Of a stretch of 64,000 bases of DNA, positions 14,759-58,435 are shown one piece after another; position 1 is the stretch's first letter; the number at the start of each line of letters is the position of its first letter. The translations under genes and the position numbers were made by a program. The stretch comes from Spironucleus salmonicida (lineage: Eukaryota). The notes beneath the pieces are model-generated. The model searched no databases, was not told where the DNA came from, and worked only from the letters and a program-made list of their open reading frames with translations. The DNA is taken from NCBI RefSeq assembly GCF_000497125.1, contig NC_090598.1:1550001-1614000 (forward strand). Reading direction: 5' to 3'.

Positions 14759-14983
14759 TAAATACAGCTTCAATTTAGTTTTGAATTAAAAGAACTTCAT
14801 AATCCTTTAACTTCTCAACACAACAATGTTTTGTTTCCGACTTTAAATTTATAATCAATAGTTCTTACACAGAATAGAACTTAATAGCAATAAGATTTAC
14901 TACTGTGCAAACATGTGTAGATATAAATATATAAATTATACTCAAAATTAAAAATACTATAAAATATATAAATTGAATATAAC

Positions 14984-15751
14984 CCTTATTTTTTAATTCT
15001 AAAGACCGTCACTTCATATCTCGCGTTCAGTCGGTTCAAAGCATTGCTGCAGTAGCTACCAGTGTCCCCTTCTCATATTTTCGTGTTCAACTGGTCTTTT
15101 GCGAGTCACGGCGACTTTACGCTGCCTCCCAATGTTGCGCGAGCACTGACCTCGGCTAACCTCTTGCAGGAGGTGGTGCGGACTCATCACCCTAACACAA
15201 GGCTCGTGTTGGGACCCATAGGCGATGTATGCGTTACCGATACTAGAGTATTTCCCCAGGTGCCCAACGATGAGCTGTAGGCTCTTTTCCCGTACGATAT
15301 CATACAGGATCCGACTGTCTTCAGCTATGGAAAGAGCCGTATTTTGATCCATGGTGTCCAGATCACGCAGCAGGTCAGATGCAGCGCTCAAAATGAGCGG
15401 CTGGAATCCACTGTCAAGCTGGGCGCGTATGAGCAGGTTGATCAGGTTTCTGAATTCCCGGCTAACCAGACTGTTCACCCGGAGGACCGCAATATCATCG
15501 CTGAGTCGCTGCTGCAAACCATAATCGTACAACAGAATTGCACGCCGGCCCCTTCATCTAGCTTCCTGAAGCTCACGGACTCTATGTGCAACTTTCACTT
15601 CGATACACTAATTTTGATCTAGGAGGACCTGCAGCAGTACAACTGCCAGATTCACGGCAAGCGGTGCGCCGTAGTCCCAGATTTTGGAAAGGGAGCGTAC
15701 TGCACTGTGGCAGGCTGCCACGGCGTGAGTAGCATCGCGTTCTACGAGTGA
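14984..15751 (+). pseudogene. POLE2: 5'-truncated POLE2 fragment (C-terminal domain only)
   Basis: Same frame as the POLE2 3' half at 37205-37972; no in-frame ATG between the upstream TGA (14756) and the repeat start. Confidence 0.8.
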
Positions 15752-17319
15752 CTGAACTTTTTTGGGGCATACATCAGCAGGGAACGCCGTTTGAAAATTC
15801 ACATCACTAGGGGTCTAAGAATAGGAAATATAACCTCACTGGCCGTGGCCAAACTTGCTTCCCAGCAGCTTGACTCCCTTCTTGGCGCTCTCCTTCCCGG
15901 CAAGCTTCGGCATCAATCTTGCCAGGATCAGCTCAATGAAGCCAAACTTGCTGCCGAACCCGCGCACCTTCAGGGCTATAACGAACTCGCAGTACCTTGA
16001 GTCTGTCTCTGTAATCGCAGAGTTCTGGATCTTCTCCATGAGCACGGCCGAATCCTCCCAGGCCGTTCTAATTTCCAGCAAGGTTGTGTTGTACTGATCG
16101 AGTACCCCAAAATCTCCCTACTCTAGGGCATTGGCGACACTGTCGTTGAACTTTGTGATCTTCTGGTCACGCGAATCGCAGATGAACTGCCGCACGGCCT
16201 CCTTCAACTGTTACTGTAGCGACTCCAGCGCCTTCGGAAGAGTGGGAAGCAGCATATCCGCAAGTTCAATATTGCCCTGGATGGTCTATATTGGAAGGCT
16301 GACCCAGCTCTCGGGGTCTTTGAACTCGAACTCTGTCACGGACGGCCGCATGTCAATCTAGCGCGACACAATAATCCGAGAGTTGTCAAACACCAGAATC
16401 AGTTTGGTCAAGAAAGGCGATATGAGACTGTACTGTATTGTCGAAACAGGGTCTATCAGTACCTAGGAGCCATCGTTGACGAGCAGCACATAATACTCAT
16501 TAACAAGCACCTGGGTGCAGAGACGCGCTACGAACGCCTGGTAGCCGCAACCACTGAGCAGTGCCTGGAGCAACATGGCGTGCTCGAAATAGTCTCCGCC
16601 GCACACGCTGAACACCTGGTCCAGGCTCATCCGAGTCTCCAGCTGGAAACTGCCTAGTTACTGTTCGGTGTAGTACCGGACTAGCGTATCCGGTATGAAT
16701 GGCACGCTAGCCGCAAAGGCTATACAGTCGTCGATTTTCTTAATACTAAACTATAGTATCAGCTTCTACGTCTGTATCTCCGAGGGAAGGAGCTAATTTA
16801 TGAACACCTGGTCACCTTTCAGGTTGTTCACGAACAAGGTAATACCCCGCTGCTCGTAGGACTACCTGATAGAATACTTTTTGAGGTACGCTCTTTTCTG
16901 CCGAGTGGTCATCTGCTGCATCAGCTCCTGTTCGTAGATACTCGATTCTGCGCTTAGCTACCCAGTTCGTGTCTAGATCTGCTCAATTCTCTGCATTTTT
17001 TGTCCAAACTCTGAGGGGAGCTACCCTGTATACTAGCTACTATCAAGGTTGCAGAAATAAACATCCCCCTTCTTGCTTTCCTACTACTGCGAAACAGGGG
17101 TGCGAGGTGGATCAAAGGTGAGAATTATTTGGATAGATGCTGTCTGCAGGTAGATTTCTCCTTCCACCGATTATTTTAAAAACAAGCTACGGAGAGGTAT
17201 CGTCACTTGCGATTCTGCGATATATGAGTTATCGTTGGGGTTGTGCTCATAGAGGATAAGCTTGACAGCATATGGGAACGATGCGATAGCTTCATCTGAT
17301 GCATCATATCCTAAAAACT
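14984..17319. repeat. 2,336-bp GC-rich direct repeat, copy 1 (POLE2 3' fragment plus the 3' end of intact CC2D2A)
   Basis: Matches 37205-39540 at a constant offset of 22,221; starts CCTTATTTTTTAATTC, ends CCTAAAAACT; 7 substitutions seen by eye. Confidence 0.97.
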
Positions 17320-19963
17320 CTTTCTCTTTAAATAATTTTGGCAGCGGTGCAGAAAATTCTAGTTTCTCGCTAAAAAATACTTCGTCATTTAAAGGTGACT
17401 AAAGTTCTGTTGATTATGCTTCGCATCCTGAACCTGTTAATTTTGCTGCTATTTAAAATAATGATGTAGTTATTGGAGTTTCATAAAGTTATAATCTGAT
17501 AACACTTAAAGATACTTAAACAAACTCTCCTTCAACAATATTTTCGTGAATCTCATTTTCCAATAGATTATCTTATTTTTAGAACTATTTTAAATATAAT
17601 GAATGTAATGTTCTACCTTTAGAACGTTATAGAATCTTAACAGGATATAATGATCGAGATTTCCATAAAAATGGTTATAATATGAATGGATTTATCCATT
17701 TTCCAGATGGCCATAAAATAACTAATTTTTCCTAAATGAAATCTGTCTAAAAATTTTAATAAATTTATTTCATTGCTGCTAAATATTACGAAAGAAACAA
17801 TGGTTCATTTAAAGGAGCTTTCCATACATCATCATATTACAATCTTGTTTTTCTATTGACTTATGTTATACTTTAATGTAGCTATATTTTTTATTTTTAC
17901 GATTTTTTACCTTCTATTATTGATAACTTGACTCCTGTTGCTAATTCTCCCAAATTAATAAAATTAGTTGGATCATATTTTTTGACTGCTGTTTTTTCTA
18001 AATTATAAAATTATGTAAGTTCCTATTTATATTTATTAAAGTCTCCTCCTTTATATTACGATTACCCTATTGGTGTCTGGATCTTACTATCAAGCTACTA
18101 AATATTTTCTAAGCTATAATTCATATTTGGGTCGAAGTTTTACTTTTTAAATGGTTAAACATTATCAGATTTTGAGTCCAAACTATTACATTATAAAAGA
18201 TAACCAATAGAATAATTTAGTGAATCTGAAGAATAATCTAATATATTTTTATCCTCTCCGGACTTTAAAGGAACAATAACTTCCCCAGTATGAGACCCTA
18301 TTTAAACTGAAATTCTAATTTTAGGTAGAACTTATGAAAATGGTTAGGTAATTTATATAGCTAATGGTTTAGCTAACTCTACTGATAGGTCTGCACCTAA
18401 TCTAATAGTTTACCCAGAACTAGAAACTTTCATAGTTTTTATTAATCCTATTGTATTTGATTAAAGCACTTATGAATTTTTTAATAGTGAAACCTTAATT
18501 TATTGTTTATCTACCAGGTTACCTAAGCTTTAATCAATTGTTGATACTTTAAATTCGAACGGTAAGTTAAGTTCAGAAGTAAGTAATTGTTTCTCATAAA
18601 GTAATTGCGACTAACGTTATATATTAAAGATATCTTGACAATTATAATCATCATTACAACCATCATTTTCTTATTATTTTAGTATAAAATTCTATTATAA
18701 CTTATCTATTGCTTGTATATATGCAAGGTTTTAAGCTAAATCTATTATTTGCAAAATTTCATCTTCGCTATTTGATTACTTTGTATCAATAGATTATATA
18801 TTTATACCGATAGCAGTACCATTATCCCTTTATACGTATTGATTCAATAATTTTCTAACAGATCTATATCTTTTAACATTTTAAAAATCAATCTATAGTT
18901 TTTATAATGTTTCTTAAATGATTTCTACAAATTTCCTATTATCTAATACATTAATATTATTGTAAATACTGCTAAATAAATCTTCCAATGTTAAAAATTT
19001 TGTATCAATCTTATCAAGTTCACTAGATTAATTAAATTTTTCAAATAGTTTGATGCTATAGTTAATTATCGCTGAAACTGAAACTTAAGCATCTCCTTTA
19101 GAAATATTAACAGGTGATATAATTTCTCCATCTATATTAATGGCAGATACTAGTCTGCAAACATATAATCCCGTTTATAATGATTCAGCAATTAGATTTT
19201 ATTTTTATATAAATAATCTTCCCAAAATAAGTGTTATATTTATGTTTTCTTAAGTTTGCTACTAATTCTACTATTTTTAAATAATAATATTATCTATTCT
19301 AGGTACCCAATTACCATACTCTCTCTTAAATATTTATCCTGCAAATAAATATTTTGGATAAACAGTAAATGGGGCACTATTTGGAATATAGTCAGTATTA
19401 AGTAATCGAGCAAATTACCTACAAGCATATCTTGGAATAATTTTCAGTTATCTAATACCTAGTATTGATTAAGTTAATTAATCTAAGAAAGTTTGTAAAT
19501 TTAAAGATTAAAGTTTAAATAATAATTTACTAAATGGTTATCTAATAATGACTTATAAAGTTGCACTTACTTCTTGTTATAGGGTTTAAACTGGAGTTTA
19601 TTATATTTAAATTAGTTACTAATATCCTGTTTAAAAAATTTAGTCAATTTAACCTAATAAAAAATTAGAAAATCTATTTTCAATAAGAATTAAAAATTCG
19701 TTGCTAATAAACGCACCACTTTTCTATCCTAACCAAAAAATTTCCGATAATTATCTATAATATATATCTGGAATTTGTGTATCAGATTCTAATGATTTGA
19801 TATTCTATTGTAAAAATAATAAATTTTCGTAAACGATACTTAAAAATAAAATAGCATCCTATTTTTATTATTATAATGATTCATTTTCAAAATTAAGTGC
19901 TTTTAACTATGTAACCATTTGATGATTGGCTTAAATGGCTTCAGAAATATATTTTGATGCCAT
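15836..19963 (-). CDS. CC2D2A: CC2D2A/MKS6-like ciliary transition-zone protein (C2 plus transglutaminase-like domain; 1375 aa)
   Basis: Frame checked free of TGA across the repeat boundary; YDPTN, a C2-like region, then SVPFIPD...GDYFEHAMLL...LIDPVS...KITKFN...FVIALKV matching the CC2D2A/CEP76 C-terminus. Confidence 0.75.
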
Positions 19964-20019
19964 TAATTAAATTGAGGATGAATATTTGGATATTTTATTA
20001 ATATATATTTTTTTGAATA

Positions 20020-23000
20020 ATGAACTAGTAACTTTTGGATTTACAATGTTTACTAAAACAGAATATATTTAATAATAAAACTCTTAACTTATCATATGAA
20101 ATTTGTTTATACTAGGATGAAAAATTTGTTTTATAGATTCTTAAAATCTTCGCTTAGCGTCCAGAATTTTCCTATCTACTATTAGCTTCGTTCTTAAATA
20201 AATCAATTAATGTAAATAGTTTATTTCATTACACTAAAAATGCATCTAAAGAACCGCTTGTTTTAATAGGTTGTTTTCTTTAGTAGTATACAGTATTTAT
20301 TTAAACTTTAATTCCAACCTAGACAATATTAGACACTGTGAAAAGTTAGTTAGCAACTAATTCCTATTAAGATTTTGTTTATAATGTAAATTAAATATAA
20401 ATTACTTAATTTCAAGAATAGATGATTAATGATTTAGCATAATAATTATTATTTAATCGAAAACAATTAGCATAATTTACCAGCTCTAGATAAATTGATT
20501 AATTTGTTAATTGTTTGCTTATGACAAATTAGCTCTAGTAATAATAGATAATATTAAATAAAAACTATGCATTAGCTTCAAAAAAGTTAAATTTTTCAGT
20601 ATCAAAATATAGCTTATTTTAAAAAATTAACCTTGATAATTAACTAAAGAAATAAATATCTCTAATTAATGATACATTAACAATACTATTTTAATTTGAT
20701 TAGTAATTATTGCTTTAAGGTCCATTCTATTTTATTAATTCGTATTCGTCTAAAGATTTTTAATATAACATAATATAGTTAATAGATATGGAAATTTTAT
20801 AGCCAGATTGTATGTTAAAACTTATTATTAACCTATATGGAGATTATTCTATGGATACTAATAAAAAGTAAGTTATTGAAGTATTGTCTCTATTTTACTA
20901 TTAGTACCTAGTAGCATATTCTAGTATTAAAATAATATTATAACATGATAATTATCAGTTGATTCTTAAAGATATTTCTAGTCATCTTATAGGATTTATG
21001 CTAAATGTTACTGAATATTCGTCTATTTTAATAGGTATATAGGTTAAATTGAGTTTTTATAATATTTAAGTCGCTATTTACTCTTAGTAATTTATATAAA
21101 TAATATTTAACTTGAGAAAATTATCAGAAATAAAAATAATAAATTAGTCTTAGTTAGATTAATAAATATTGGTATATCACTAGTTATATTTATTTACAAG
21201 TCTTTCAATGGTATAATAGGGACAATAACTTTTTGCAGCAAAACATATAAACAGTTTGTTATCTACAGATAAATAAATATTAAAAATATAAAATCTCATT
21301 TTTATGATAAAAGATAATAATTCAGAATTTATTTAATTATATTTCAACCTTCTATTAATTGAATTATTATTTTTTGATATTAATTATTTTTACGGCTAAA
21401 TTATATTTTAAACTTCTAAATAACTTCAAATTTACATAGTTAAATTATTTAATTAGCATACAGTCCATTAAACATGTATAGTATTACTTAAATAAGTATA
21501 AATTTATGCACAAAAGTAACCTTAATATTCTAATATATTTTTATTATAAAGATTTAAAATGATTGAATATCAACTAGGGAATCAAATAAATAAAGCTTTA
21601 GTCAATACTATCATCGGTGATCCAATTAAATAAATGATTTAATTATATCTATAATAGGAGAATTAATTCATTTACAAAAAAATTTACAAATAAAATTAAC
21701 CAGTAACAGCAAAATTATGTCGTGCAACATTATAAAAAACTCATGATTATATGATTCTATAAAATATTGATAGTTTGCTTGATACAGTAGATTCGTCCTC
21801 ATTTAAAATTGTATTATCAAATGAATACTTTTCAAAAAATACTTATTTGTTTATATCAATCTAAAATACGTTATTGTTTAAATTGTCTTTGTAAACATAA
21901 GCATAATCTATATAAATACCAGTGCAATATACAAATACGTAGCCTTAAAATTTATCATTGGAAATTGAAGCAATAAAGTAACTTTAGCTCGGTAATATTA
22001 TCGGATTTATTTTTAATAGATTTTAATCACTTTCATCTACTTTAGAAACTTCTTTAGCGTCATATAGCCAATCATAAATTCAAGATTTATAAAAATTAGA
22101 TAACTTTTATATGTAATTTTATAATGCATTACCATTTTTATTATTTGGGCCCTTAGTTGGACTAACACGTTATAGTTAAACGAAATAAAATACTGAGAAT
22201 AATATAGAATCTAATTTAGATCAAAATTTATATACTATTGCTAAACTCTCATTCTAATCTATAAACTAATTTAAACTATTCAACTTTAACATTTAGCAAG
22301 ATTAGATATTAAAAATTATATTTATTCTATTATCAAATGAACATGTATTCAATTTTAAAATTAAATAAAAAGTATATGATAATTTTACTAATTATTTAAT
22401 ACCAATTTTAATTAAGCCTACATTTCTCCCATTTTCACTGAATCGAATTCCTTTTGCTACCTTGGAATTAAGTTATATTTAACAGCAAAATCTAGATACC
22501 TTTATCCTATTTTACGATAAGCTCAATCTTATAACAGATATAACACATGTATAAAGAATATCGATTGACCCCATATTGAACTAAATACCACTAGAAAACA
22601 CATTTTCTTTTATAAATACCATAAGATATTTGAAAACGTCACAAAAAATGCATATAACAGCATCTGAGTAACTCCCACCCTCTACAAATTTATTTTTTGT
22701 AGATTCTTCGCTCCCCTAGACTTAGATTCGCATCAGAGAACTTCTGAACAACTAAAAATAGTCATGGGTCGAAATCACAAAACCGCAGGCCATTATAGAC
22801 TCAATTAAGTCTACATAACATTTTATTTTTGCAGGCCATGGAGGTGCCGAAAATCTGCTTCCACATCACAAAATTTTACAGCTAGAAAGCCTCCCAGAAG
22901 CTGCAATTCTGGGATGCTCATCACTGTGTGGAAATTATTTTTCCGGTGGAAGAATTCGCTATACACCGGAGAAAAATTGGCGGCATGGTAGCATTGTAAT

Positions 23001-23151
23001 TGGCTGTTTGTGGGACATGCTCAGCGGAGAATTAGACAGGTTTGCACAAGGTTACGTAGATGGTGGAATGGGTATTTAGGGAAGCTTTTAAGGACGAAAG
23101 AAAATGTTATTGAAATCAGTTTTCGGCGTCGGAATCGTTGTTTATGGGTGA
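20020..23151 (+). CDS. ESP1: Separase (peptidase C50; about 1043 aa)
   Basis: Catalytic FAGHGGAE and ILGCSS; VIGCLWD...ELDRF; C-terminal VVYG. Confidence 0.88.
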
Positions 23152-23164
23152 GAAAATATGTGAT

Positions 23165-26100
23165 TCAGTAAAATTTGCATGATTATTCAAACTAATTAGG
23201 GGTCAAAAACAGCGCTTTAAGCGTATATAAATCTTCGGATACGGCTCCTGAAAGTGATAAAATAGATTTATTATTACTGCGAATTTCGACTAAAAAATCG
23301 TATGACAATATGTTGAGAATTCGTATAATAATGGATGGCAAAAGTGGATGAAAATTATTAAAAAGTTTCTTAACTGATATCCCTGGGTTAATATAAATAA
23401 ACATTGAAATGTCCTTGCGTAGTTATTATATTAATTAGGCGTCTAGAGTAGTAGTTTATAACACGATTTCTCTAGAATACAGCAAAAGTTCATTTGTGTT
23501 AGAATGCTAGTTAAAATACCCTAATTTAGCTATAAATTTTTATTCAGGATTTAAATCTGAATATTTAATATAATCTTTTTTCTTTTATATTGTTAAAAAT
23601 TATTTAAATATTTGTTACTCGGTTTGATTTTTGCAAAGCTAAATAAAATATGATACTAATTAGTTTGATTTTTAAGTAGGATATATATGAGTTACTTATG
23701 TTTAATTTTCAAATGACTCAGAATCTAATATAGACTTCTACTCTATTCTGATTATTTAAGGTTTATTACATGAACTAATGGGGTTTTCAAAAAATTCATC
23801 ATATTCAGAAATTATACTGATGTCAGTCTAAATTGAGTGTAAAGATGTAGAAATACCTTTATATGATGATGTTTTATTGTATTTAATATTATCAGAAATT
23901 TGAAAGGGATAATTATCAAACATACATATATCATCTTCAAAATTATCTCTCTAATTATCAGTATAATAAATAAAGGTTGCTAATTATGAACTATTATTAA
24001 CTTACTTTTAAATATGGGAATTTTGAGAATATAAAGTAGCAATCTATTTATTATTATTCAAGTTATATTTTTAGCAAAACAAAAATAATTAATTGTCAAC
24101 TATTTCATCTTGTAATATATAATATTGTAGCACCTTGTTAAAAAACTAATAATACGCCATGGATTGTTTATCTGAGTATCTTAAATTTACATAATTACTA
24201 GCTTAAATTATTTTAGAGGATTGATCAAGGTTAATCTATTACTCCAAAGTATTCAGATTCTCGTTTATTATTAATTAGTCTTTAAAAAAAGGTGATTACT
24301 ATTAATACGTTTATTAAATATTAGTTACAATATCATTCCTAATTGATAAAATTGATTACTGAAACTTATAACTTCTTTTCTAATAGGCAAATTTAGGATA
24401 CACTAAATTTAAAGGTACAATAGTATAAGGTATATACCTTTATTTTTTGTAAATAAATATTTTAGATTTTATATTAAAGGTTATAATTGAGTAAATAGAA
24501 TATGCTAGAAATTATTAAATTGTAAAATTAATTTATTATTATGTTATAAACTCCTAAAACGTATTTTCTATAGCAATGCATTTATTAGGAGAGCTTAAAA
24601 TTAATTTTTTAATAAGTATTAATATACTAAGTTAAGGTATTGCGTAATTTTTAATGAACTCATGTAATTTTGAATTTGTTTAAATAAATGTTCTATCAAT
24701 TATTATTTCTTTTAAAATATTATAATCAACCTCTGGCTTTTATAATAAAAATTTAGTAATATTTATATCTTTAATATCATGAAAAGATCTCAATCTAAAA
24801 ATAAAATCCTAAACTAATAAAAATGGTATAATCAAGTCCTATTACTCATAGTTATAATTTATAGAACAAAAATAGCTTATATTATCATATTATAAATAAG
24901 ATAAATCTTTAAGATATTACGATATACCATTATCTGCAAAAATATAAGCTGATAGTATTTCAACATTCAAATAATATGGAGTGTTTATGACATACACTTA
25001 TTTATTTTTCTATAAATATGACAGTTTCTTATAATAATGTGGCTTAAAAGCTAGCTACAATGATACTTCTGTTATATATCCTGCATTCTCTAATACTTTC
25101 AATTAAGCAGAAATACTTTATTTTACTTTTCCCAATTTGTTTCCAATAAATTATTTAAATATGTCTTCAGATAAATATATTAGCTAACAGTCAAATTTTT
25201 AATCATTTTAAAGGTCATAAAAAACAGATTCAAATTATACCCCAAAATCTTTAACGAGTTTCAGTAACTATCTAACTGTAAACTACATTATCATTTAATC
25301 AACTGATATAAATCCTACATTTAATGTTTGATAGATTTAATTATTAGTTATTTAAATTAACACTTTTAATAGATATAGTGTTCTGTTAACATTATTTTCA
25401 ATAAAATAATAGGTTTTGATATACGTATCCTATTAATTTGGCACACAAGAATTATTATTGCGTTATAAATTTAATACATCCTATTAAATAGAATCTCTAC
25501 ACCAAATTAAATCATTTTCTATTATAATATATTTAAATATAACCAAAAAGTTTAAACTTTTATTTATAAGATACTCTAATAGTTGAATATTCTTTATTAT
25601 TGAACCTAATTATATAATTTATGTAGTTATGTTTGATATATTCATTTACATAGTTTTACTTATCACAAAAACTAAATAATTCATTTAAAATTAATTAAAG
25701 CTACAACCAGGGTCATTTATAATGGATTGCTACTATATATTCGATATATCATCCAACTAAGTATCAGTTTCATTTTAAATACTGGGTTGCTATGGTACCC
25801 ATTCTTACTTTTTTTAGCAATAAAACCATGGTAACTAAAATCCAATATATTATTTTATATTTTTACTAGACAAAAATAAACTTTAAATAAGGTTAGAATC
25901 TTCTTTAATCTTTAAACTATAAACTGGTGTCAGTGGTTAAATTCTACTTTAAACTAAATGATCAGCGTTGATATATCTTAAAAAACGTGAAGATTTAAAT
26001 TTGCATTCTTATAAAATATTTAATTTACATAAATGTTCTAAAACTTTATTAATCATCTATTTATCATAACTCAAAGCCCCATATATTTGACAATTCTATA

Positions 26101-26638
26101 AAACTAAACATTATGTTAAAAATAAGTTAATAATTTCAGTTCTTAATAGTCTAAGCTAAATCAATAGTGAAAATACTGGAGTTAATGAAAAATATTTAGA
26201 TGTAGTAAAATGAAATAGGCAAGCATCAAATTCCTGTCTAGATAATTATGCATTATAATATATTTAATTGTACTATATTATGTGATTAAATTTTAAAAGG
26301 TAATCTAAATGCATGTTTACCTACTTTTTTTATTCGCCTTTAATCTCAGTTAACTTTATACCACGAAAGCAATTCCTTGAAACCTAATCATAAATTAAAA
26401 CTTATTATAGATTTAATAAACTAATTTTTAAAAACCTTTACCTATATTCATTATTAATTAATATTACCCCATTTGCAAGTGAACCGTTATCAGTTACCCA
26501 TTTATTAATAATCTAAAATAGAATTTATTAATTGTTTTGTTACATTTCTAATGAATCTATATATTCATTTATCTCTGATAACGATATATTAATTTTACAG
26601 CATGCAACAACTTTAAGAAGGTGAATATTTTTTATCAT
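23165..26638 (-). CDS. Probable TFIIIC B-block-binding subunit (GTF3C1/Tfc3-like; about 1157 aa)
   Basis: Winged-helix-like IYDQVSRNCFRGIKLTEIK...VNMHLDYLLKFNHI near the N-terminus; C-terminal IYINPGISVKKLFNNFHPLLPSIIIRILNIL resembles the last WH domain of GTF3C1; start codon uncertain (alternative ATG 26803). Confidence 0.5.
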
Positions 26639-26669
26639 TTTAATAATACAAAGAATTAGTATATAATAT

Positions 26670-27137
26670 TCATTCAAATATAAGTCTTTCTAATAAATTA
26701 CTTACACGGTTGTCAATATCTATATTGGATTAATACTTTTTGTCAAATGATTTTTCGATAATAATTTGCTATTTGAAGTCCTGGTTTTATTTAATAAGTT
26801 CATTTATAGTTTGGAACTATTATTCTAGATTTTATTCTGCTCTCTCAATTTAATAATTTAAATCTTATAATCTGTATTACAAACTCTCATTTGTTTAGGT
26901 CTTATCTATAGTGGATCTCGATGTTGGAAATACTTCGACTTGTGCTTGCTCTGAATACTCCTCATCCTCAATTTAATGTCTGATTTATGAAATTTTGCGA
27001 TCCAATGAATCTCTATTTCTATCTAAATATTCATGTTCTAAACCAACAACCATTTATTTAAGAGCTAAATCTGACAAGTCGCTTTAACCAGATTTTGCTC
27101 GATTAATATATTTTTATTTGGTTTCAGAATCTGTCAT
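26670..27137 (-). CDS. Small coiled-coil protein (155 aa)
   Basis: Code-6 ORF ATG 27137 to TGA 26670. Confidence 0.75.
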
Positions 27138-27178
27138 TTATGTATTACATAATTTTTATGTAATATATTAATATAAGA

Positions 27179-28837
27179 TCACTATATTTCACTTTTTCGT
27201 GATTACAAATATTATTCAAACTATGCGTATTTTTGACTAATATCATCACATAAAAATTAAAATTATTCTTTGAGATCTGGGCTTAAATATTCTTTAAGTT
27301 TAATGCAATAAGTAATATAAATATTGAATTAACCACTTTCTTATAATTGTGCATTCGTAATTTATATCTCTAATATTTTTTACATGAGTGTATTCACTAT
27401 AGATATGAGATCAGATAATGAAATTAGGAGATATTCTATTAAATTTGGTATAGCCTATAAGAGTTCTGAAAACAACTAATTGCTAAGTTTATTAATCAAC
27501 ATTTCTTAAATTTATGCTTTAAATAAGTAGTTAAAACTATTTTATGATTTTTCGAAATCTTTACACTTAGTTTGCTTTGTTATTTAAATAAGAGGTAAAT
27601 TATTAACAGTAAGTAACTATAAAAATTAAATTCCCTTCAAATTTAACCTATAAAAATTATCCTGAAAATATTATGATAAAGAAAAAATTATTTATATCTA
27701 AGTATAACCATTAGAAATAAACTTATTAACAAGAACATATAATAGCATTTACAGTTCTAATACATTAATTGACTATAGTATATAATCAATAAGATTAGAC
27801 TAAAGTGCTTAAAATCTTATTTAATCAAATTTTACTGTATTTTTCTTAATTTATAATAATATAACTTCATTATCATCATAATACACTAAAAGCTAATCTA
27901 GATCATAAAAATGATCAACAATTATATCATCTTGTAAACCTTTTAATTTAATCTTTGGAAAATTTTAACACTTAATAATAACATCAGTGACAAGTCTTTT
28001 TAATAAAACTGTTTATTATTTTTTTATTTTTTATTTTTTAACATCGATCATATCAAAGTATTGTAGCGAAAATTCTTCTTGATACTTCGTCATAGTACGC
28101 TTCAGACCATAATATTTCGATACTTGACTAGAGCTCTATTATAATTATATTGTCTTTCCAAATCTTTAAATTTCTGAGTTAATTTTAGAAGATTAATTTT
28201 TGAAATTTCTGTAAAATACCACTAATTCCTCTTATGAACTCTCAATATCTTATACATTTTATTTATTTACTGGGTATTTGTAGTTAAAGCCAAATAAATA
28301 TTTCAAAAATATTTAATTACACGCTATAACTGTATCACAAACTTCCTAAACATCTGATTTAATACAAAAACGATCTACTTCTGATGATAGTTATTATACA
28401 TATGTCTCTAAAAAACTATTCATTGCTTCAAATACAAATTCGAAGCACTCATTGTTAATAATAAGACCTTATGCATATAATGTGAAAATTTTCTGTATCA
28501 ATCTTTAAATCTTTACCATATTATCCCATTCTTCTAATTATAGCTCTTTAATAAATTCTAAATCAAAATCAATACAATGTTCTGAACATTTTTAAAATGT
28601 ATATAGAAAATTCTTGGAAAACCAATTATCAATAAACATCTTGGATACTTAAAATGCAACATCATATAGATCCTCTTTATTTGGGAATTATGCATTCTTC
28701 TTACCATCTAAAATATATTTAATTTAATTAACAGTATTTGGACCAGCTCTATCATAATTTGGAAAATTCTAATAGATTTTAAGCAAAGCATTTCGCTGTG
28801 CATACGCCATATCTGGATCAATTTATGCTATATTCAT
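27179..28837 (-). CDS. Hypothetical protein (552 aa)
   Basis: Code-6 ORF; TAG-TGA stop. Confidence 0.7.
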
Positions 28838-28889
28838 TAAGAAAAGAAAATAAAAGTTACATATATTATTAAATATAAAATGAACTGAC

Positions 28890-30809
28890 TCATTTGTACT
28901 GATCATATACCTTAATATATTCTTTAATCATTATGCTCCAATCAACCACTATAGAATTTCTGCTCATTCTGTTTCTCAACGCAATTCTCTAATGAACGCT
29001 CATTTTTAAATAATCCAACATCATTTCGTGTAATTATAAGACAGTATCCCAGTATGGTTTATAGATTCTATCGACAACTTAAACACCATATTTATTTGAC
29101 ATCCAGGAATTGTTTTCATTCTCCTGCGTTGGATACTAAGCCCCTTATTCTTCAATATAGTTACCAAAACCACACATGTTGGAAACGACACTAGCAGTAC
29201 CGACGCACATACACTCAGGAGACGTATAACCGAATGGTTCATAAAGAGATGCGAAAACGCCCAAATGAGCACCTCTAGTGAAATCAGAGTAATCAAGGCC
29301 AAAAATAGAAGTTTTAGACAAAAACTCAGGAACCCATACCATTTTGCAGCGGTCGCTAAAGTTGTTTGTTAAATGCAGTTCTCTCAAACGGCACAGCAAA
29401 TCGGAGTTCTAATCTGCTAACTTATGAGTCGTAACTGGAGACTGATTTGCAGATTTCTACATTGACTGATGGAAGCGCTTTAATAGCATTAAATCATCAG
29501 AACCGCAGAGCTGGTTAAGAGACAGCTCTGAGAAATCGCTATCTAAACATTCGCAAAGTTTGTTTCCTAGAGATTCTGTGATATTTTCAGATATCTTTCC
29601 AACTGATGACTATATTTCCTTCATCAAGTTAGTAACAAACAGGCTATGTTCTGTAAAACCATTGTTAGGGGCAGGTGCTATGATAATACCAACAACAAAT
29701 TTGTTCGCTAATTCTGGGTGAGAATCGCGATACTACTAAGATGTAAGCTTCTTATTTACCTCATATAATGCATCAATGAAAAGATCATATCCTTTATTTT
29801 TGTATTCATATCTACCAGCACTAAAGAATACGAAAGTGTTATCAATATCAATACCGTAAAAGTGGGATTTTACGAATTCCAAAATTTTGTCTCTTTCGAT
29901 TTTATGTTTAAAATTGAGTTCGTGGTCGTCAATAAGCCCCTTCTATGAATCAACGTGCAAACCGTTCCAGGTAACTGCGTCAACCTTTCTTCCCAAAAAT
30001 GCTTCGCACTCAACACTTGTAATTGTGCTCACTGTTGTAAACTAGTCTGCTAAATTAGCGCATGCGCGTTCAATTCTATGTTCAAATTCAACGCTTCTCT
30101 TACATGCCTCTGCATCCCAAACTCCAGCGTCGGTCTATTTGAAGCACTAGTTGAGGTCGGCATCACCAGCACTCAAATGCCTTCCCAGCGTAGTTGCATG
30201 AGTTGTGAATATGAACTTAACCCTATCGAAATCCTCAGGACTCTTCTGCCTGAAATACTTCTATGCTGGGCCCAGTTTTTTGTACGCAAATAGACCTACG
30301 CCAGCCAACCATTCATGTGTCTGTACAATTATAGTTTCGTGGTTTTTTGCATATTCTACTAAGAAAAACGAGTAAAATGCCCATTACATCGCGCCAAAAG
30401 TTATCGCATTAAGTTTGAAATCCTCAGGATGTTGATGTGGTTATTCTGACAAATTGGATTCCTCCCACAGAAGTGTTTTCACAACATTAACAAGTTTCCC
30501 ACCAATGAGTGGGAGTAAAAAACATTAAGGACCGCCTGGAATAAGCCATTAGCCATATCTAACAGAGTTGAGTGGTAGCTCGAAAGAGCGTTCAAAATTG
30601 CTTAAAAAGTCGTCCCAGAACGAATTTGGTGTTCTTTTATCCTCAAAATTTGTGGCATACTTATCATCGCCAATAACATTCATACCGATCATAAAGAAAT
30701 GGTCGCCATATTTTTTAACAAGCTCAGGTGCTTTGGAACGAACAACTGTTTCCACACCTCCAACTTTATGAATAACCTCATAAGAAGCTTCTAAAATAAA
30801 CTGAGACAT
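28890..30809 (-). CDS. GSY: Glycogen synthase, eukaryotic GT3 family (639 aa)
   Basis: EASYEVIHKVGG, THEWLAG, FTTHATTLGR, AGRYEYKNKG, GVFASLYEPFGYTSPEC. Confidence 0.95.
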
Positions 30810-30913
30810 GATTTGTGGAGGGGTCAACAAATTTATTCATATATTATATATTAATTAGTTATAATTAGTTCTATTAGTTACTACTTCAAAAAGTCTGAAA
30901 TAAATACAAATTA

Positions 30914-31906
30914 TCACTTAATTTTATTAGAATTTAAGATTTATAATAGTAAATCAGACATAACTGATAATTTTTAGTTTATTTCTTAGAGGAGTAAGAT
31001 ATTATCTGACCCAGTAGCCTTATTTTCTGATTCTGAAAAAGTAAAACTAGACGACATTTCTACTCCTACTAAGCTAGATAATGTTTCATTAGTTAAATTA
31101 CCTGTTTTTGAAAAATCAATTTTATTCTTTGAAGTCGGTAATACCAATTCATTCTTGTTGTTATTAGAATAATTAAACGACTAACTGAACAGTTTCTTTT
31201 TAATATTAGATGTAAAGGACTGGAATTGCTATCTTAAAGAAATATGAAATAAATGAATATCAAAATTAGTATTGGTTTATTTCGCCACACACCAACCAAA
31301 ATTATGTGGTTGTATAACTAAATTTTAATATGAAAACTGACATTTAGTAATTAAATTTGTTATAGTACTTGATGATAAATGCAGCATAGAATCTAATAAG
31401 ATTGTATCTCTCACATTTGTAACTAAATGTTTACTAAAATTAAATGATTGATAAATTAACTAAAATATGTGTAGGCTTGATATTAAAAAAACTTTATCTA
31501 ACAATGAATATATACTATTTTAACAATTTTATTCTAACTCTAAATCTTACTAATATGCAAAGTTAATACCGGTAAATACATACAAATAACCATTATGTTA
31601 CTCAATTCCATATAATGATCCCTAAAAACCAAAACATAATAATTAGAGCACATTTTTGCAATAAATTGTACTTTAATTACCTTCCAATTTATAAATATTA
31701 CTTTCATATTAACAAAACCAAGAAGTAGCACAATAAAAACACTTGAATTTACTACTTAGCTATGTCTTCTAAATTTTAATATCACTAATTTTAATATCGA
31801 CAATATTATAATCTTTGTCAAACTCAATACCCTTACCATCATTAAAACAGTACTACTTCCCATTTTATGAATAATAAAATGTCATATCATCTAAATCAAC
31901 TTTCAT
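30914..31906 (-). CDS. Hypothetical protein (330 aa)
   Basis: Code-6 ORF; AAG-TGA stop. Confidence 0.7.
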
Positions 31907-31937
31907 TTTTATATACAAATAATTTGAGATGCAAATA

Positions 31938-33347
31938 TCACTATCTATAAAACTAGATAGTATTTTATTGCTTAATTTAATTTGTAGCAGCTCTAGTCAT
32001 TTCAATAGCTTGCATTCGTTATTGCAGATCTGGACTGGCTGCTAATTTTCTAGCTTGTGTAATAATTTCATAAGGTTTTTAATTTTTTATATTCAATTGC
32101 TTCTGATTTATAAGATATTCAATAAATATATCAGGGTCATCCTTAGGTATAAATTTTTCACCTTAGCTGGGCTTTGGTATTCTAAATGTTTATTTAACAG
32201 GTGATGTTGGTCTTGATAAAGTTTAAATAAGTTAAAATTCACGTTTTCTTTCATACTATTCTCTATTTAATGTAGCTTAAAATTATCTTACTTCTATGTT
32301 AGCAGCATTTTCTTTCCGTTTTAATAATAATTGGTTTCTTTGCTGCGCAGCACTTTAAATCTTTTCAGCTTATTTAGAAATAGTCTCTGATTGGCGTTAT
32401 AATAGTTAATTCTATATATCAATATTTGCTTTTTCTTAAGTTCTACTTAATTTTTATTATTATTCATGGATTCTTGACTATTTTTCAAAATTAATTTTTT
32501 TTCTTTAAACTTCAGAATGCTATAGCTTTTCTTATTAAATTTATTAATAATAATCGCTTCTATCTTATATTGACTGACAGTACGTAGTGTGTCGTAACTA
32601 TTATTACAATGCACGATCATAATTCTCTTTTTATTTTAATCGTTCTTGACTTCTTTTATTTTATCTTAGAACTGCGGTTCTTTATTCTTTTTCAATATAT
32701 TATTTTTCAAACTCTTTGAGTTTTTCTTGTTATTATAATTAATAATTATTATAAGTTTATTAAAGTTTTATTGTATCGTTTTCTTATTTAACTAATAAGT
32801 GTCTCTATTTCTCTGTTAAGTTTTTTTCTATTATTTTTTGAGCCTATTATTAACCATTAAATGTTTGCTATAATTACTTTAAAGCTTTCTAGTTTTAATC
32901 TTGTATATGCTAGTCTTTCTTCTGCTAATATTACTAAAACATCTCTCTACTCAGTGTTAGACGCTATTTGCAATTAACAGTCTAGGTCACTACATTGGAA
33001 TCCAATTTAAATTGATTATATTAATAGTTTTCTTACTAAATATCCTTTTTGACACCATTTACTTTAACCGGACTTTAAGTTTACTTAATCTACTTCTATC
33101 TAGTATTATTAAAAATTACATATTTTTTTAAATTTTACGGTTTATTTAGCGCTTTCCATTCTAATTATGGTATACCATTTTCTATTATCGTTAATCGTTC
33201 TTTTTCAATTAACTATTTAATATTCTCTAATTCTATTTCTAACTTTTATTATAGTTCATATGTTGGTGCAAATTATTCAAAAAATTCTTAAACTACTCCT
33301 AAACGTTTCATAGCTAATTAATATCTTGGTGAATTTTAGCGTTTCAT
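31938..33347 (-). CDS. Q/E/K/R-rich coiled-coil protein (469 aa), possibly cytoskeletal or flagellar
   Basis: Code-6 ORF with long charged heptads; TAG-TGA stop. Confidence 0.75.
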
Positions 33348-33396
33348 TTGATAATTAATATTATTATTCTTATATAATATACTTAAGGCGTATCAA

Positions 33397-34317
33397 ATGA
33401 TTGCAACATATCAAGGTTTAATAAACTTGTAAGGAAATTACTTTCGAATACCACTAAATATTCTGTAGCATAGGAAAACTCAAGATTTATTAATTTTATA
33501 ATTGGATGATAATTATTTATATCTCTTAAATTTTGTCACTTTTAAAATAAATAAAACACGTTTTTCTAGTCTTTAAGCATCTTAATTAATCCCATAAAAA
33601 TTATTAGATAAATATTTTTAGACACTAGACCCTGAGATAGCATTCTAAATTTAAAAATATAAATAAAATCTTTTTGTATAAATGAATGAACTTATTTTAG
33701 AAAATAATTATTTCTTCCTCACTTAATTGAATGCTTCATTTAGTTATAATGATTTTGAATTTACTGATTATGTATTTAAATTAGATTATTAGCATGATTT
33801 AGTTTATAATTACGCTAATGATACATTTGTTTTAATTGCTGATAAGTTATTTAAATTATAACAATATAATATTGTTCTCTACCAAGATCATACTATAGAT
33901 ATTCAAATTATAAATAATAATTTTATTGTGTTTAAATAAAACGACTCAGCTTTTTTAGATTAAACTATAATCCACACGTATTAAGATTTTAAACTTTAAT
34001 TGGATAAAAATATATTATTATTTAATGATGGTATAAACTATTCGTTAACATAAGATGAGTTATTATACTTCAAATGTAACTTAATTTCTTCAAGAAATTT
34101 AAACTTATTTTTTATTTCAGCTGATACTTTTTTAAATCTATAAGGTGATGTTTTTGTTTTAGAATTAGGTTTTGCTGGAATTTTTACAACGTCATCTTTT
34201 AACGTTACCCTATCAAATAATATATTTGTTATAAACAAATAATTTTTTCATAATGTTTCAAATTTTGATTACAATAAAAATTATTTTGACTTATTATATA
34301 AGAAGATAAAATAGTGA
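33397..34317 (+). CDS. Hypothetical protein (306 aa)
   Basis: Code-6 ORF; TAG-TGA stop at 34315-34317. Confidence 0.7.
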
Positions 34318-34326
34318 TTTATAAAA

Positions 34327-36408
34327 TCATTTTATATACCGTAGTTTATTTTTCAAGATATGAATGTTCATTTAATTGCTAAACTACGAGTTAATATTAT
34401 GCAACGACTCAAGATTATTACTTATTGCTAACTAGCAGCCTAAAAATTAAACAAGATCGTCCTATAAATTAATATCCAATTAACTAATTTCTTTACCTAA
34501 AACATTTATATTAGAAAAATTAATAATATTCTTTGATAATAATTTACTGTCTTTCTAAATAGGTTCTATAAAATTAATTCTTTTATTACACTTAATATTA
34601 AGTTTCATATTATCGATACATATATTGTTTCTGTTTAATCCAAAATTGACCTATATCTAAAAACTAATAATTGTTTAAATTTAAACTTTTTTTGAAGATT
34701 ATTCTAACAAAATTTACAAATTCTATAACAAATTGTCTTAATTGCAATGTTATGAAAACTATTGAGTTTAAGTTGTCGAATTTTTTTTCACATTCAAGAA
34801 TAGTATAATTTTAGTAATATTTAGATTAGCAGAGTATTATATGATCTGTTATTAACAGTGATTAAACATTAGTTAATACTGATTCATATTAATTAAAGAA
34901 AATATAATTTTATTCGAAAAGACTGTTATTTATCGTATATTATCATCTGACTTTACAGGATCGAATTTAAATATTAGATCAAACCCACGTAAAGCTTAAA
35001 ATAATTTTTTTCCTTAACTTTCACCTATAATAGATTATATTCTTTATATCTATAATTATTAAATATCTTACAATTTAAATAAATTTTCATTTTTTAACTT
35101 CTATATTTCAATATTGGATAACAAAGGTATAAAATCTAAATTTTGACTAGATATTTTTGTATAAAATATATTTTATGCAATAAAATTTAAATGGGTAGAT
35201 GAAGATAACTTATTCGATAAGTATGATATCAATGGATTTGAACCTGCACCAATAGTGATAGAAATCGATAATTGTTTTTACAAATCTTATTAAATTTTTT
35301 ACATGTATGCATAAATAGACTATTCTGAAACAAATCCTGAAATATTAATAAAACATTCAAAGCAAGAATAAGGCATTACTTCAGCAGATATTTATCTAAT
35401 ATATTCATAAAAACAATTAGATATTAAACTATATCTTTGATTATTATAGGATATAATCTAAAGATTAATCTAAACTTATAATTTTTTCAAGGACTAAATA
35501 TGTTATCCAATCTAAATTTAATATTTTGCAGCAATCTAGTTAAAATATAATATCTTTTCATTCTCTATAACAACTATTGGAAAGCCAGAATATTTTTCAA
35601 GATTATCAAATATTAGGGATGAAATATAAAAATTATCAATTGATATAAAAATATAGAACTAAGAAACACCTTTGCTAGGCTATTATCCATAAGGTCTATT
35701 GTAAATAAGGTACTAAACCGCATTTAATTTTTATTTGTATTCTAAATTGTCCTATTCAATGAGCTAAAATTAGGGTAATAACTACTAATTACTTATACTA
35801 ACAATATTAGGTGACAAAGACAGTTATTTAACAGGTGAATATAAAGCAGATTATTAAGAAAGCTATAAATATTATATTTAAGTTTACACTAAGTCAGGTT
35901 AAGATTAAATAGATTTTATATCTACAACTTCTGGTATGGATATGAGCGTGTCTAAGGTTTAGTCTATGTCTATTTAAAAAGGCTTACATAATATTTCATA
36001 ATTATAATTATAATCATATTAAAATTGAATAGTATTATGTTAATATCTAAACTTCTATAAGTCTAAAATTTCGTGACTGTTTATTGATTCCAATATCCAT
36101 CCCGGTAATAATATAGGATACTTTGTTCCATATTTTTAAAATGTGCTAGACGATAAATTTTACGCAATTATATGAGTTATTTTTGGACTAAATTAGAATA
36201 CAATCAATCCACTATGCAAACCAATTATTTAACGGAGATATGTAGTCGGTGGATCTAGCCTGCCATTCAGCCAAAATAGAAATCCAGTAAATAAATTAGA
36301 AATTTTATGTTATTATAATTATTAATCTTGTTTATTTTATTTCTTTTTTCTGTAGTCTTTATAATTAGATCCTAGAGGATCTAATTACTCAGATCTAATT
36401 CTATACAT
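34327..36408 (-). CDS. REV1: REV1-like Y-family polymerase with BRCT domain and degenerate active site (693 aa)
   Basis: BRCT LFTGFLFWLNGRLDP...ITHIIAQNL...PGWILES; Y-family core FISIDNFYIS, PYSCFEC, ITIGAGSNPLIS, LRGFD; CTD-like tail. Confidence 0.85.
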
Positions 36409-36454
36409 TAAATTTTTATTACTTTAATTATATATAAGTATCATTATTATATAA

Positions 36455-37972
36455 ATGAGTCTTAAAGCTTAAATTTTGTAGTAGCTTAATTTTATGTAAA
36501 TTAGGATCACCCCTGATGGTAAATAACTACTGGAGAAGATACTTATTGATATTGTCGATCCAATCTAGTATATAAAATAAATTTTTTCTATAGCATCAGC
36601 AGATATATTAGATGCTAAATAAATTTAATTACTAATTCTTTAAAATTAGCCATCTTCTGCGTTTAATATTTAATCTTATTCCGTGTTTCAAACAATGTTC
36701 TTAATATAAACCATTTAACATTATAATGGTACTTTTACCTATCGCTAAAAATAAAAATTTGATAATAATCTTAAATTTTATTATTAAATGTATAGCAATG
36801 TTACTAGCTTTGAGGATAAATTTTTAAGTCTACTTGCATCCTAATATGGCATTACGAATTAGAGTTGTACAAAATCCCATTAGTATAAATAAATTATTCA
36901 AGCCTTATTTCATCTTCAATCATTATCATATAGTGTTAATAATCCAGACTAATTAATTGGAACCATTTGTATATTATAGGGATAGTATTTAACTGATAGC
37001 TAGACATCTATTTTATTTAACTTATAGCAAAATATTTTTACGTCTCTTTCATACATATATACTGATTCAATAGTTTTAGTTTTAGGAACTTATTAAAATA
37101 ATATCTTTAATATTATTGGTATCGCACCACCAGTGTATGATACAAAATTTATTCATAAAGTTTAATATGTAAATCCAAAGATAGCTATACCAAGCCAAGC
37201 AAAACCTTATTTTTTAATTCTAAAGACCGTCACTTCATATCTCGCGTTCAGTCGGTTCAAAGCATTGCTGCAGTAGCTACCAGTGTCCCCTTCTCATATT
37301 TTCGTGTTCAACTGGTCTTTTGCGAGTCACGGCGATTTTACGCTGCCTCCCAATGTTGCGCGAGCACTGACCTCGGCTAACCTCTTGCAGGAGGTGGTGC
37401 GGATTCATCACCCTAACACAAGGCTCGTGTTGGGACCCATAGGCGATGTATGCGTTACCGATACTAGAGTATTTCCCCAGGTGCCCAACGATGAGCTGTA
37501 GGCTCTTTTCCCGTGCGATATCATACAGGATCCGACTGTCTTCAGCTATGGAAAGAGCCGTATTTTGATCCATGGTGTCCAGATCACGCAGCAGGTCAGA
37601 TGCAGCGCTCAAAATGAGCGGCTGGAATCCACTGTCAAGCTGGGCGCGTATGAGCAGGTTGATCAGGTTTCTGAATTCCCGGCTAACCAGACTGTTCACC
37701 CGGAGGACCGCAATATCATCGCTGAGTCGCTGCTGCAAACCATAATCGTACAACAGAATTGCACGCCGGCCCCTTCATCTAGCTTCCTGAAGCTCACGGA
37801 CTCTATGTGCAACTTTCACTTCGATACACTAATTTTGATCTAGGAGGACCTGCAGCAGTACAACTGCCAGATTCACGGCAAGCGGTGCGCCGTAGTCCCA
37901 GATTTTGGAAAGGGAGCGTACTGCACTGTGGCAGGCTGCCACGGCGTGAGTAGCATCGCGTTCTACGAGTGA
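36455..37972 (+). CDS. POLE2: DNA polymerase epsilon subunit B (Dpb2; 505 aa), full-length copy
   Basis: N-terminal helical domain, OB-fold (LIGTICILQGQYLTD...VLVLGTY...IGIAPP), phosphoesterase-like domain (IFVFNWSF, LVLGPIGD, FPQVP, QDPTVF, LLQTIIVQQNCTP); 3' half lies inside repeat copy 2. Confidence 0.85.
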
Positions 37973-39540
37973 CTGAACTTTTTTGGGGCATACATCAGCC
38001 GGGAACGCCGTTTGAAAATTCACATCACTAGGGGTCTAAGAATAGGAAATATAACCTCACTGGCCGTGGCCAAACTTGCTTCCCAGCAGCTTGACTCCCT
38101 TCTTGGCGCTCTCCTTCCCGGCAAGCTTCGGCATCAATCTTGCCAGGATCAGCTCAATGAAGCCAAACTTGCTGCCGAACCCGCGCACCTTCAGGGCTAT
38201 AACGAACTCGCAGTACCTTGAGTCTGTCTCTGTAATCGCAGAGTTCTGGATCTTCTCCATGAGCACGGCCGAATCCTCCCAGGCCGTTCTAATTTCCAGC
38301 AAGGTTGTGTTGTACTGATCGAGTACCCCAAAATCTCCCTACTCTAGGGCATTGGCGACACTGTCGTTGAACTTTGTGATCTTCTGGTCACGCGAATCGC
38401 AGATGAACTGCCGCACGGCCTCCTTCAACTGTTACTGTAGCGACTCCAGCGCCTTCGGAAGAGTGGGAAGCAGCATATCCGCAAGTTCAATATTGCCCTG
38501 GATGGTCTATATTGGAAGGCTGACCCAGCTCTCGGGGTCTTTGAACTCGAACTCTGTCACGGACGGCCGCATGTCAATCTAGCGCGACACAATAATCCGA
38601 GAGTTGTCAAACACCAGAATCAGTTTGGTCAAGAAAGGCGATATGAGACTGTACTGTATTGTCGAAACAGGGTCTATCAGTACCTAGGAGCCATCGTTGA
38701 CGAGCAGCACATAATACTCATTAACAAGCACCTGGGTGCAGAGACGCGCTACGAACGCCTGGTAGCCGCAACCACTGAGCAGTGCCTGGAGCAACATGGC
38801 GTGCTCGAAATAGTCTCCGCCGCACACGCTGAACACCTGGTCCAGGCTCATCCGAGTCTCCAGCTGGAAACTGCCTAGTTACTGTTCGGTGTAGTACCGG
38901 ACTAGCGTATCCGGTATGAATGGCACGCTAGCCGCAAAGGCTATACAGTCGTCGATTTTCTTAATACTAAACTATAGTATCAGCTTCTACGTCTGTATCT
39001 CCGAGGGAAGGAGCTAATTTATGAACACCTGGTCACCTTTCACGTTGTTCACGAACAAGGTAATACCCCGCTGCTCGTAGGACTACCTGATAGAATACTT
39101 TTTGAGGTACGCTCTTTTCTGCCGAGTGGTCATCTGCTGCATCCGCTCCTGTTCGTTGATACTCGATTCTGCGCTTAGCTACCCAGTTCGTGTCTAGATC
39201 TGCTCAATTCTCTGCATTTTTTGTCCAAACTCTGAGGGGAGCTACCCTGTATACTAGCTACTATCAAGGTTGCAGAAATAAACATCCCCCTTCTTGCTTT
39301 CCTACTACTGCGAAACAGGGGTGCGAGGTGGATCAAAGGTGAGAATTATTTGGATAGATGCTGTCTGCAGGTAGATTTCTCCTTCCACCGATTATTTTAA
39401 AAACAAGCTACGGAGAGGTATCGTCACTTGCGATTCTGCGATATATGAGTTATCGTTGGGGTTGTGCTCATAGAGGATAAGCTTGACAGCATATGGGAAC
39501 GATGCGATAGCTTCATCTGATGCATCATATCCTAAAAACT
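37205..39540. repeat. 2,336-bp GC-rich direct repeat, copy 2 (3' end of intact POLE2 plus CC2D2A 3' fragment)
   Basis: Matches 14984-17319; flanks diverge immediately on both sides. Confidence 0.97.
38057..39540 (-). pseudogene. CC2D2A: 5'-truncated CC2D2A-like fragment
   Basis: Frame open within the repeat, but beyond 39540 it reaches a TGA (about 39683) with no in-frame ATG and no similarity to 17320 onward. Confidence 0.75.
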
Positions 39541-39897
39541 ATTTTTAAGGTTTTGTTAATTTTACGATATTAGTAAAATTTTAATATTATGATTAAATAC
39601 ATTAGCTTTTAATATTAGTGTTTTCAATTATATCTTAAATTATATGATGTATTAGGAAAATAGAGGAAGTATTGTAGAAAAATCAATAAAATTTGAAATA
39701 ATATCATTACTTCGTTATAACTACTAGCAGTAGATATATATAGTTACCTTTCAGTAAAATATTTATATATTATTTAATCAGTTATAATTATATAAACAAT
39801 AAATATAAAGTGAAATGCCACAATAATAATTTAGGATTTTAATAAAGTGATAAATATACTTAATCTAATTGAATTCTTAGTATGATAACGTATTACA

Positions 39898-58426: not shown

Positions 58427-58435
58427 CGAATTTTT

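Follow-up and report, generated by a model that had tools for sequence, protein, structure and literature searches.

Sharp GC shifts and genes whose third codon positions are rich in GC (high GC3) were described in the genome of Spironucleus salmonicida in 2007, and neither mutation nor selection was found to explain them easily (PMC1805757; here and below, each paper is cited for the portions available to us). The S. barkhanus orthologues of high-GC3 genes have lower GC3 (PMC2874811). In 2022, the duplicated regions of S. salmonicida were reported to have 44.7% GC as compared to 30.7%, and a histone H4 array with reverse-transcriptase inserts was described (PMC9509377). The GC swings, unexplained in 2007, were thereby linked to duplicated regions only on average. 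In the available portions of these papers GC-biased conversion is not named, and that of 2022 invokes conversion only for the expansion of surface proteins; the 2014 genome paper (PMC3916229), in its available portions, adds nothing on GC shifts. A search for literature joining Spironucleus and biased gene conversion, with subscription journals mostly outside its reach, found none; for diplomonads, only work on Giardia rRNA was found. Here, we analyzed a 64,000-nucleotide stretch of S. salmonicida contig NC_090598.1 (positions 1,550,001 to 1,614,000; hereafter, the window), which contains two copies of a direct repeat, X. In X, a DNA polymerase B-subunit gene (POLE2-like) and a CC2D2A-like gene converge with their 3′ ends. 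The phenomenon is the same as that in the above papers, namely GC-rich duplicated regions and sharp shifts, and the repeat offers a clean natural experiment on this standing GC puzzle.

GC-biased conversion between duplicates and within-gene GC steps are already established in other systems. In a known repeat-arm system, the arms are more than 99% identical through non-allelic conversion and their GC lies above that of the single-copy flanks, as is the case for X. However, the bias was shown there by polarised substitutions in three species, whereas X is a 2.3-kb direct repeat of protist gene halves in which GC doubles, and its bias is judged from composition. In Giardia, genes with conversion events are enriched in GC (0.541 versus 0.488; PMC12669663). 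In mouse Fxy, which lies at the pseudoautosomal boundary, the 3′ part has gained GC, including amino-acid changes, and the 5′ part has not (PMC2631073). That case resembles the present one, but its driver is allelic meiotic recombination in a region where the rate is high. Here, a duplicated segment ends at the boundary and two genes are affected reciprocally. Histone arrays show concerted evolution with GC gain. Homogenised copies in ribosomal DNA arrays gain GC as well (cited in PMC10123126). Both kinds of array consist of many copies of whole genes under dosage or expression selection; in contrast, X has two copies, and half of each is without evident use. Compared with the available portions of the above literature, four features are new: the near base-level coincidence of GC edges with repeat edges inside genes, an inward ramp of GC, the reciprocal split of two genes and GC islands without a partner. 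We propose, at a probability of roughly 0.6, that X has long existed in duplicate and that its copies are kept alike by GC-biased non-allelic gene conversion; its membership in this class of systems is likely rather than established.

Self-BLAST of the window detected a single repeat pair (14981-17323 and 37202-39544), which is direct and gapless over 2,343 bp. In the clean core, X (Table 1), which is 2,336 bp long, the copies differ at 7 positions without indels (99.70% identity). All seven had been listed in an earlier note made from the letters of this DNA alone; two extra differences lie at the ragged ends of the repeat. Five of the 6 coding differences are amino-acid changes, which is close to the neutral share. 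The GC content is 0.498 per copy as compared to 0.259 for the remainder of the window, so that the rough doubling reported in the earlier note holds: near-identical non-allelic copies, at 0.50, are richer in GC than their single-copy flanks, at 0.26. The whole genome assembly contains 2 copies of the repeat. Each copy completes just one of the two genes and bears an orphan 3′ piece of the other, the stops being separated by a short spacer. Both orphan frames are open, as had been noticed from their lack of frameshifts. The last 55 codons of the orphan POLE2 piece (15584-15751) appear in a public protein set under an entry of their own (P0002, 55 aa); this entry is probably an annotation by-product. 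X does not have the features of a mobile element or terminal repeat: there are 2 copies only, the content is host gene ends, no mobility domain was found among 30 scanned open reading frames (ORFs) of the window and no Rfam family matched the window.

The composition changes where the two whole genes cross the repeat edge. GC at 4-fold degenerate sites of the POLE2-like gene rises from 17/76 before the edge to 68/118 inside the repeat (0.22 to 0.58; p=1.6e-6), and that of the CC2D2A-like gene from 31/267 outside to 132/209 inside (0.12 to 0.63; p=5e-33). The Gln codons of the POLE2-like gene are TAA (18), TAG (10) and CAA (5) before the edge and CAG (14), TAG (3) and CAA (3) inside. Both counts agree with the earlier observation of a switch from AT-rich to GC-ending codons near 37200. 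When GC was followed along the sequence, the best-fit change-points within the genes fell at the repeat edges: 37225 (37219-37243) for the edge at 37205, and 17303 (17281-17437) for the edge at 17319. The distance is ~20 bp or less in both genes, for which the crude chance is ~6e-4. On the orphan side, the change-points 15004 and 39524 also match the edges, as is expected of any junction. At the POLE2 edge, the fit of an abrupt step exceeds that of a slope over 100 bp by 4.8 log-likelihood units. The change in the CC2D2A-like gene had been called gradual; the rise is confirmed and the gradual course only in part, since GC steps to ~0.5 at the edge and then ramps.

The non-coding spacer is also raised, as had been noticed: its GC is 35/84 (0.42) as compared to 533/2716 (0.196) for 11 other spacers pooled (p=6e-6). 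Where a gene crosses the edge, the comparison is made within one gene, with one promoter and one level of expression, so that such genes provide a direct test. The size of the effect is very large (synonymous GC of 0.15 to 0.7). Selection for GC-ending codons by expression alone is insufficient, as the earlier note had argued, because a step inside single genes and in the spacer is not predicted by gene-level selection. Equal steps at coding and non-coding sites are predicted, however, if repeats carry a distinct mutation spectrum, through chromatin, replication timing or repeat-directed repair, and conversion itself is unbiased; regional mutational bias was raised in PMC1805757. Nevertheless, a chromatin or timing domain would hardly respect a homology edge to ~20 bp, and we consider this explanation quite unlikely.

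Outside the repeat, synonymous GC is flat at 0.10-0.25. Inside, it increases with the distance from the edge: 0.45 (0-150 bp), 0.56 (150-300 bp), 0.62 (300-600 bp), 0.70 (600-900 bp) and 0.71 (900-1200 bp). The trend is significant over 736 codons (p=1.2e-5), in each gene (p=0.013 and 1e-4) and when codons are permuted within codon families (p=2e-4). Thus, the excess at near-neutral sites, as seen at 4-fold sites, in the spacer, at the edges and in the ramp, is confined to the homologous stretch. A general GC effect at 3′ ends or convergent ends was rejected: a set of 44 single-copy genes of at least 400 codons lacks a comparable 3′ rise (0.18-0.21 over the last 400 codons), the median slope of 0.016 per kb (Wilcoxon p=0.04) is far under the rise in the repeat, and convergent gene ends have no GC excess (34 versus 23 ends, p=0.32).

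Table 1. Positions of the repeat, its genes and the other GC-raised features. Plain numbers are positions in the window; C3 is the contig of the window (window = C3:1550001-1614000) and L003 to L018 are labels of sampled pieces.
Feature	Position	Strand	Remarks
Repeat copy A	14984..17319	.	GC 0.50; completes CC2D2A-like gene; bears orphan POLE2 3′ piece
Repeat copy B	37205..39540	.	GC 0.50; completes POLE2-like gene; bears orphan CC2D2A 3′ piece; ~2x contig depth
Whole POLE2-like gene	36455..37972	+	505 aa, code 6; repeat edge crossed near residue 250
Whole CC2D2A-like gene	15836..19963	-	~1,375 aa; repeat edge crossed near residue 880; PF24656
Orphan POLE2 3′ piece	14984..15751	+	Open frame; first ATG only within last 55 codons
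Orphan CC2D2A 3′ piece	38057..39540	-	Open frame; 3 amino-acid differences from whole copy
Spacer between converging stops	37973..38056 (copy B), 15752-15835 (copy A)	.	84 bp, GC 0.42-0.43
Single-copy segment between copies	17320..37204	.	19.9 kb: CC2D2A 5′ part, separase-like, glycogen synthase, REV1-like, POLE2 5′ part
Inverted pair	C3:1376361-1380593 / 1392205-1396437 (L005:6361-10000 + L006:1-593 / L007:2205-6437)	inverted	4.2 kb, 99.9% identical, 11.6 kb apart, GC ~0.35
Histone H4 array	L014:8600 to L018:4700 (C3:1468600-1504700)		36 kb; 14 units of 1,585 bp + four 3.6-kb inserts; GC 0.48-0.50; ~45 kb upstream of window
Unpaired GC islands	L012:5470-6500; L003:7750-8500; L013:5007-5960; L005:1700-2600; L018:6000-8100		~1 kb; GC3 up to 0.78, inside AT-rich single-copy genes

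The long frames of the window are open under code 6 (TAA and TAG are read as Gln) and intronless. The POLE2-like protein was assigned to PF04042 by Atlas features (0.95) and by structure (TM 0.62-0.65); no Pfam HMM matched it and a PDB profile search gave no result. Its top structure matches are epsilon subunit 2 and its top feature matches are alpha subunit B; an epsilon-type B subunit (POLE2) is likely, rather than proven, from these predictions. The closest named homologue is a Hexamita inflata protein, which is collinear with it and itself weakly matches PF04042. The CC2D2A-like protein contains PF24656, the CEP76 peptidase-like domain, near its C-terminus (E=2e-10) and is collinear with the homologue P0012 (34% identical); from the protein length, we take it to be CC2D2A rather than CEP76. 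Its start was placed at the first ATG that does not overlap the ORF on the opposite strand (about 19963). Both whole proteins are in register with their homologue across the repeat junction. Therefore, judging from the aligned sequences, the two are natural continuous genes, which speaks against the chimera that the earlier note had considered.

The same observations bear on the possibility that a segment from a GC-richer relative replaced both native 3′ ends by hybridisation or transfer. The sharp compositional edges would fit such an event. However, code 6 is kept inside the repeat (TAG and TAA as Gln), the orthologue register is intact at both junctions, the composition ramps inward instead of being flat, and repeats span GC values of 0.35 to 0.50. 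Moreover, a donor with a 4-fold GC of ~0.6 would differ at about half of such sites, which makes it ill suited to two replacements that are both exact and in frame. Introgression is thus very unlikely.

In contigs from three DNA runs, the depths of the repeat and of the segment between the copies were 22.4 versus 11.6, 19.5 versus 8.4-9.4 and 289-373 versus 158, that is ~2x; all three runs derive from one sample, from which the window sequence itself may have come, and the contigs are of short-read type. Both alleles at position 38000 are similarly deep (145 and 164). A single-depth contig of 19,945 bases extends from repeat copy to repeat copy, and the single-copy state of the middle segment is based on contig depth. 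The linear order A-X-B-X-C, with X on both sides of the middle segment, rests on the assembly, as none of the contigs compared bridges a whole copy plus both flanks. The middle segment and one copy of X would close into a 22,221-bp circle with both genes whole, and short-read contigs of one sample do not tell A-X-B-X-C apart from A-X-C plus an X-B circle. This leaves room for a mis-join; the doubled depth of the repeat, the single depth between the copies and the similar depth of both alleles at 38000 speak against it. We consider an assembly artefact, or the codon selection discussed above, extremely unlikely.

Repeats of at least 300 bp were counted in 284 kb of one contig (the window plus 220 kb), which is ~2% of the genome. 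Other segmental repeats, for which a check had been suggested, are also GC-rich in this sample: with an AT microsatellite set aside, GC is raised in 3/3 repeats, namely X (0.50), the array of histone H4 and reverse transcriptase (H4/RT; 0.48-0.50) and an inverted pair (~0.35). Repeated bases (49,251) have a GC of 0.468 versus 0.254 for the other 234,749. There are 81 windows of 500 bp with a GC of at least 0.44, of which 76 are repeated, 1 is at an edge and 4 are single; most of the 76 come from one array. The inverted pair contains a TRM13 methyltransferase gene, two tRNA-Ile genes and the ends of two genes. Both genes that cross its edges step up inside, from 0.15 to about 0.24 (p=3e-6) and from 0.15 to 0.31 (p=0.001). 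Thus, a GC step was seen in 4/4 edge-crossing genes examined in X and the inverted pair. Because one copy of the inverted pair holds both whole genes, this pair is not locked; it may show the process seen in X at a younger stage, where "younger" is an assumption. In the histone H4 array, synonymous GC is 0.80, and the inserts carry what we take to be a reverse-transcriptase-like motif. The H4/RT array has 8 base variants, too few for a variant-frequency test, and the 7 copy differences in X are likewise too few. The microsatellite (L014:438-1236) is ~800 bp of nearly pure AT (GC <0.02), a repeat without GC enrichment.

At the protein level, the shift is visible in one of the two genes. Compared with the H. 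inflata orthologue, POLE2 residues are GC-richer at 42 and AT-richer at 74 positions outside the repeat, and GC-richer at 78 and AT-richer at 33 inside (p=3e-7). In the weakly conserved POLE2 part, the amino acids have probably been shifted by the GC drive as well, judging from this one distant orthologue. The identity to distant orthologues is 0.31 outside versus 0.38 inside the repeat, and 0.26 versus 0.30, for the two proteins. Two metagenome scans for orthologous DNA gave 143 and 499 pattern matches with 0 confirmed relatives; only distant proteins were found.

We propose the following scheme for X. In the ancestral state, the two genes would have stood tail to tail at one locus. The order A-X-B-X-C may have arisen by a tandem duplication with its outer parts lost, or by re-entry of a circle. 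From then on neither copy could be lost whole, since each finishes a different gene. The 19.9-kb segment and one copy, 22 kb with replication and mitosis genes, would be lost if the copies crossed over, so that only non-crossover exchange would persist. Metamonads are without non-homologous end joining and parasitic diplomonads without alternative end joining (PMC8516963), and therefore breaks should go to homologous repair. Repeated copy-to-copy conversion would maintain both the 99.7% identity and the open frames of the orphan pieces, and conversion favouring G/C at mismatches would drive synonymous GC from ~0.15 to ~0.7. Since conversion needs flanking homology on both sides, its effect would start at the edge and strengthen over the first several hundred bases. 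The copies share the shift at about half of synonymous sites and yet differ at 0.3%; therefore, the shift either predates the duplication or spread between the copies. Spread by conversion is the more likely of the two, given that the step coincides with the edge and that GC ramps inward. The plateau GC corresponds to 13-fold odds over background; in a toy clonal model (4 copies becoming 8), a G/C preference of ~66% per event would give these odds. For primate palindromes, a preference of 70% was reported (PMC8981503).

The edge-bound step, the ramp, the second repeat and the in-register proteins partly support old duplication with GC-biased conversion, as the earlier note had put forward. Several observations weigh against it. 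All 5 tested GC islands lack a partner in the genome assembly, in a search that recovers the partner of the inverted pair, and two of them reach GC3 of 0.72 and 0.78 over 100 codons versus 0.73 for the repeat. Milder GC bumps at the 3′ end of the separase-like gene (22500-23400) and in the glycogen synthase gene (28900-30600) lie on one unbroken single-depth contig. In both genes, "inward" coincides with 5′ to 3′. Identity gives no clock, since the copies of the inverted pair, at 99.9%, are no less alike than those of X and yet have a GC of only 0.35. Most repeated bases in the sample belong to one array. The CC2D2A-like protein has no amino-acid shift relative to P0012 (GC-richer/AT-richer 145/149 outside and 118/131 inside, p=0.67).

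The islands bear directly on another explanation, in which a GC island arose first, by local allelic recombination or repair, and was then duplicated lately, the breaks falling on its edges or close to them; the copies would differ at 0.3% because they are young. All 5 tested islands are unpaired and two match the GC of the repeat. There are no indels between the copies, and homology remnants past the repeat edges are not significant (shuffle p 0.04-0.20 for 6 window sizes; 19/328 and 15/178 natural controls score as high as the repeat flanks). The earlier claim that a recent duplication cannot give the shift is thus weaker than stated, since single-copy islands of like strength exist nearby and a ready-made island could have been copied. 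However, both breakpoints must then fall within ~20-40 bp of the island edges, and the same coincidence is needed in the two genes of the second repeat, that is in four genes overall. In addition, the abrupt POLE2 step is preferred by its 4.8 log-likelihood units, and the flank of a hotspot should fade smoothly. Island-first copying is therefore unlikely in our estimation.

Among 88 predicted genes outside repeats (heuristic gene calls, array loci left out), 6 hold a 100-codon stretch with GC3 of at least 0.4. In the L012 island, GC changes abruptly at one edge and rises inward as it does in X, a profile that fits a duplicate whose partner was lost or is missing from the assembly. Unpaired islands might be ghosts of lost copies or hidden copies, and could equally be allelic repair hotspots. 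We tentatively extend the conversion reading to a cycle of duplication, conversion and loss that writes the GC landscape of the genome, with second copies driven to GC and unpaired islands as ghosts of lost partners, although the odds are against this extension. If it were true, any newly doubled stretch would quickly be pushed to GC, with an effect on amino acids as well, reciprocal splits of genes such as that in X would lock the copies in and take them furthest, and synonymous GC would be a datable record of vanished duplications. If the conversion reading of X itself is true, it is biased conversion, rather than selection or the transfer of genes, that shapes codon use and some of the protein sequence of a replication gene, probably an essential one, and GC-rich patches in such genomes should not be taken for foreign DNA or high expression.

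Further mild GC bumps in the window lie at 12400-13300 (KAP 3′ end) and 58000-59000 (SIR2/TPR ends), and a weaker bump (~0.40) is present at a gene 3′ end at L010:5300-6100. The milder bumps of the window might be relics of segment parts that were duplicated for longer. Genes for replication, repair and mitosis are clustered at 20020-50607 of the window: separase-like, REV1-like, POLE2-like and a BRCT plus AAA-like protein, which is presumably RFC1-like.

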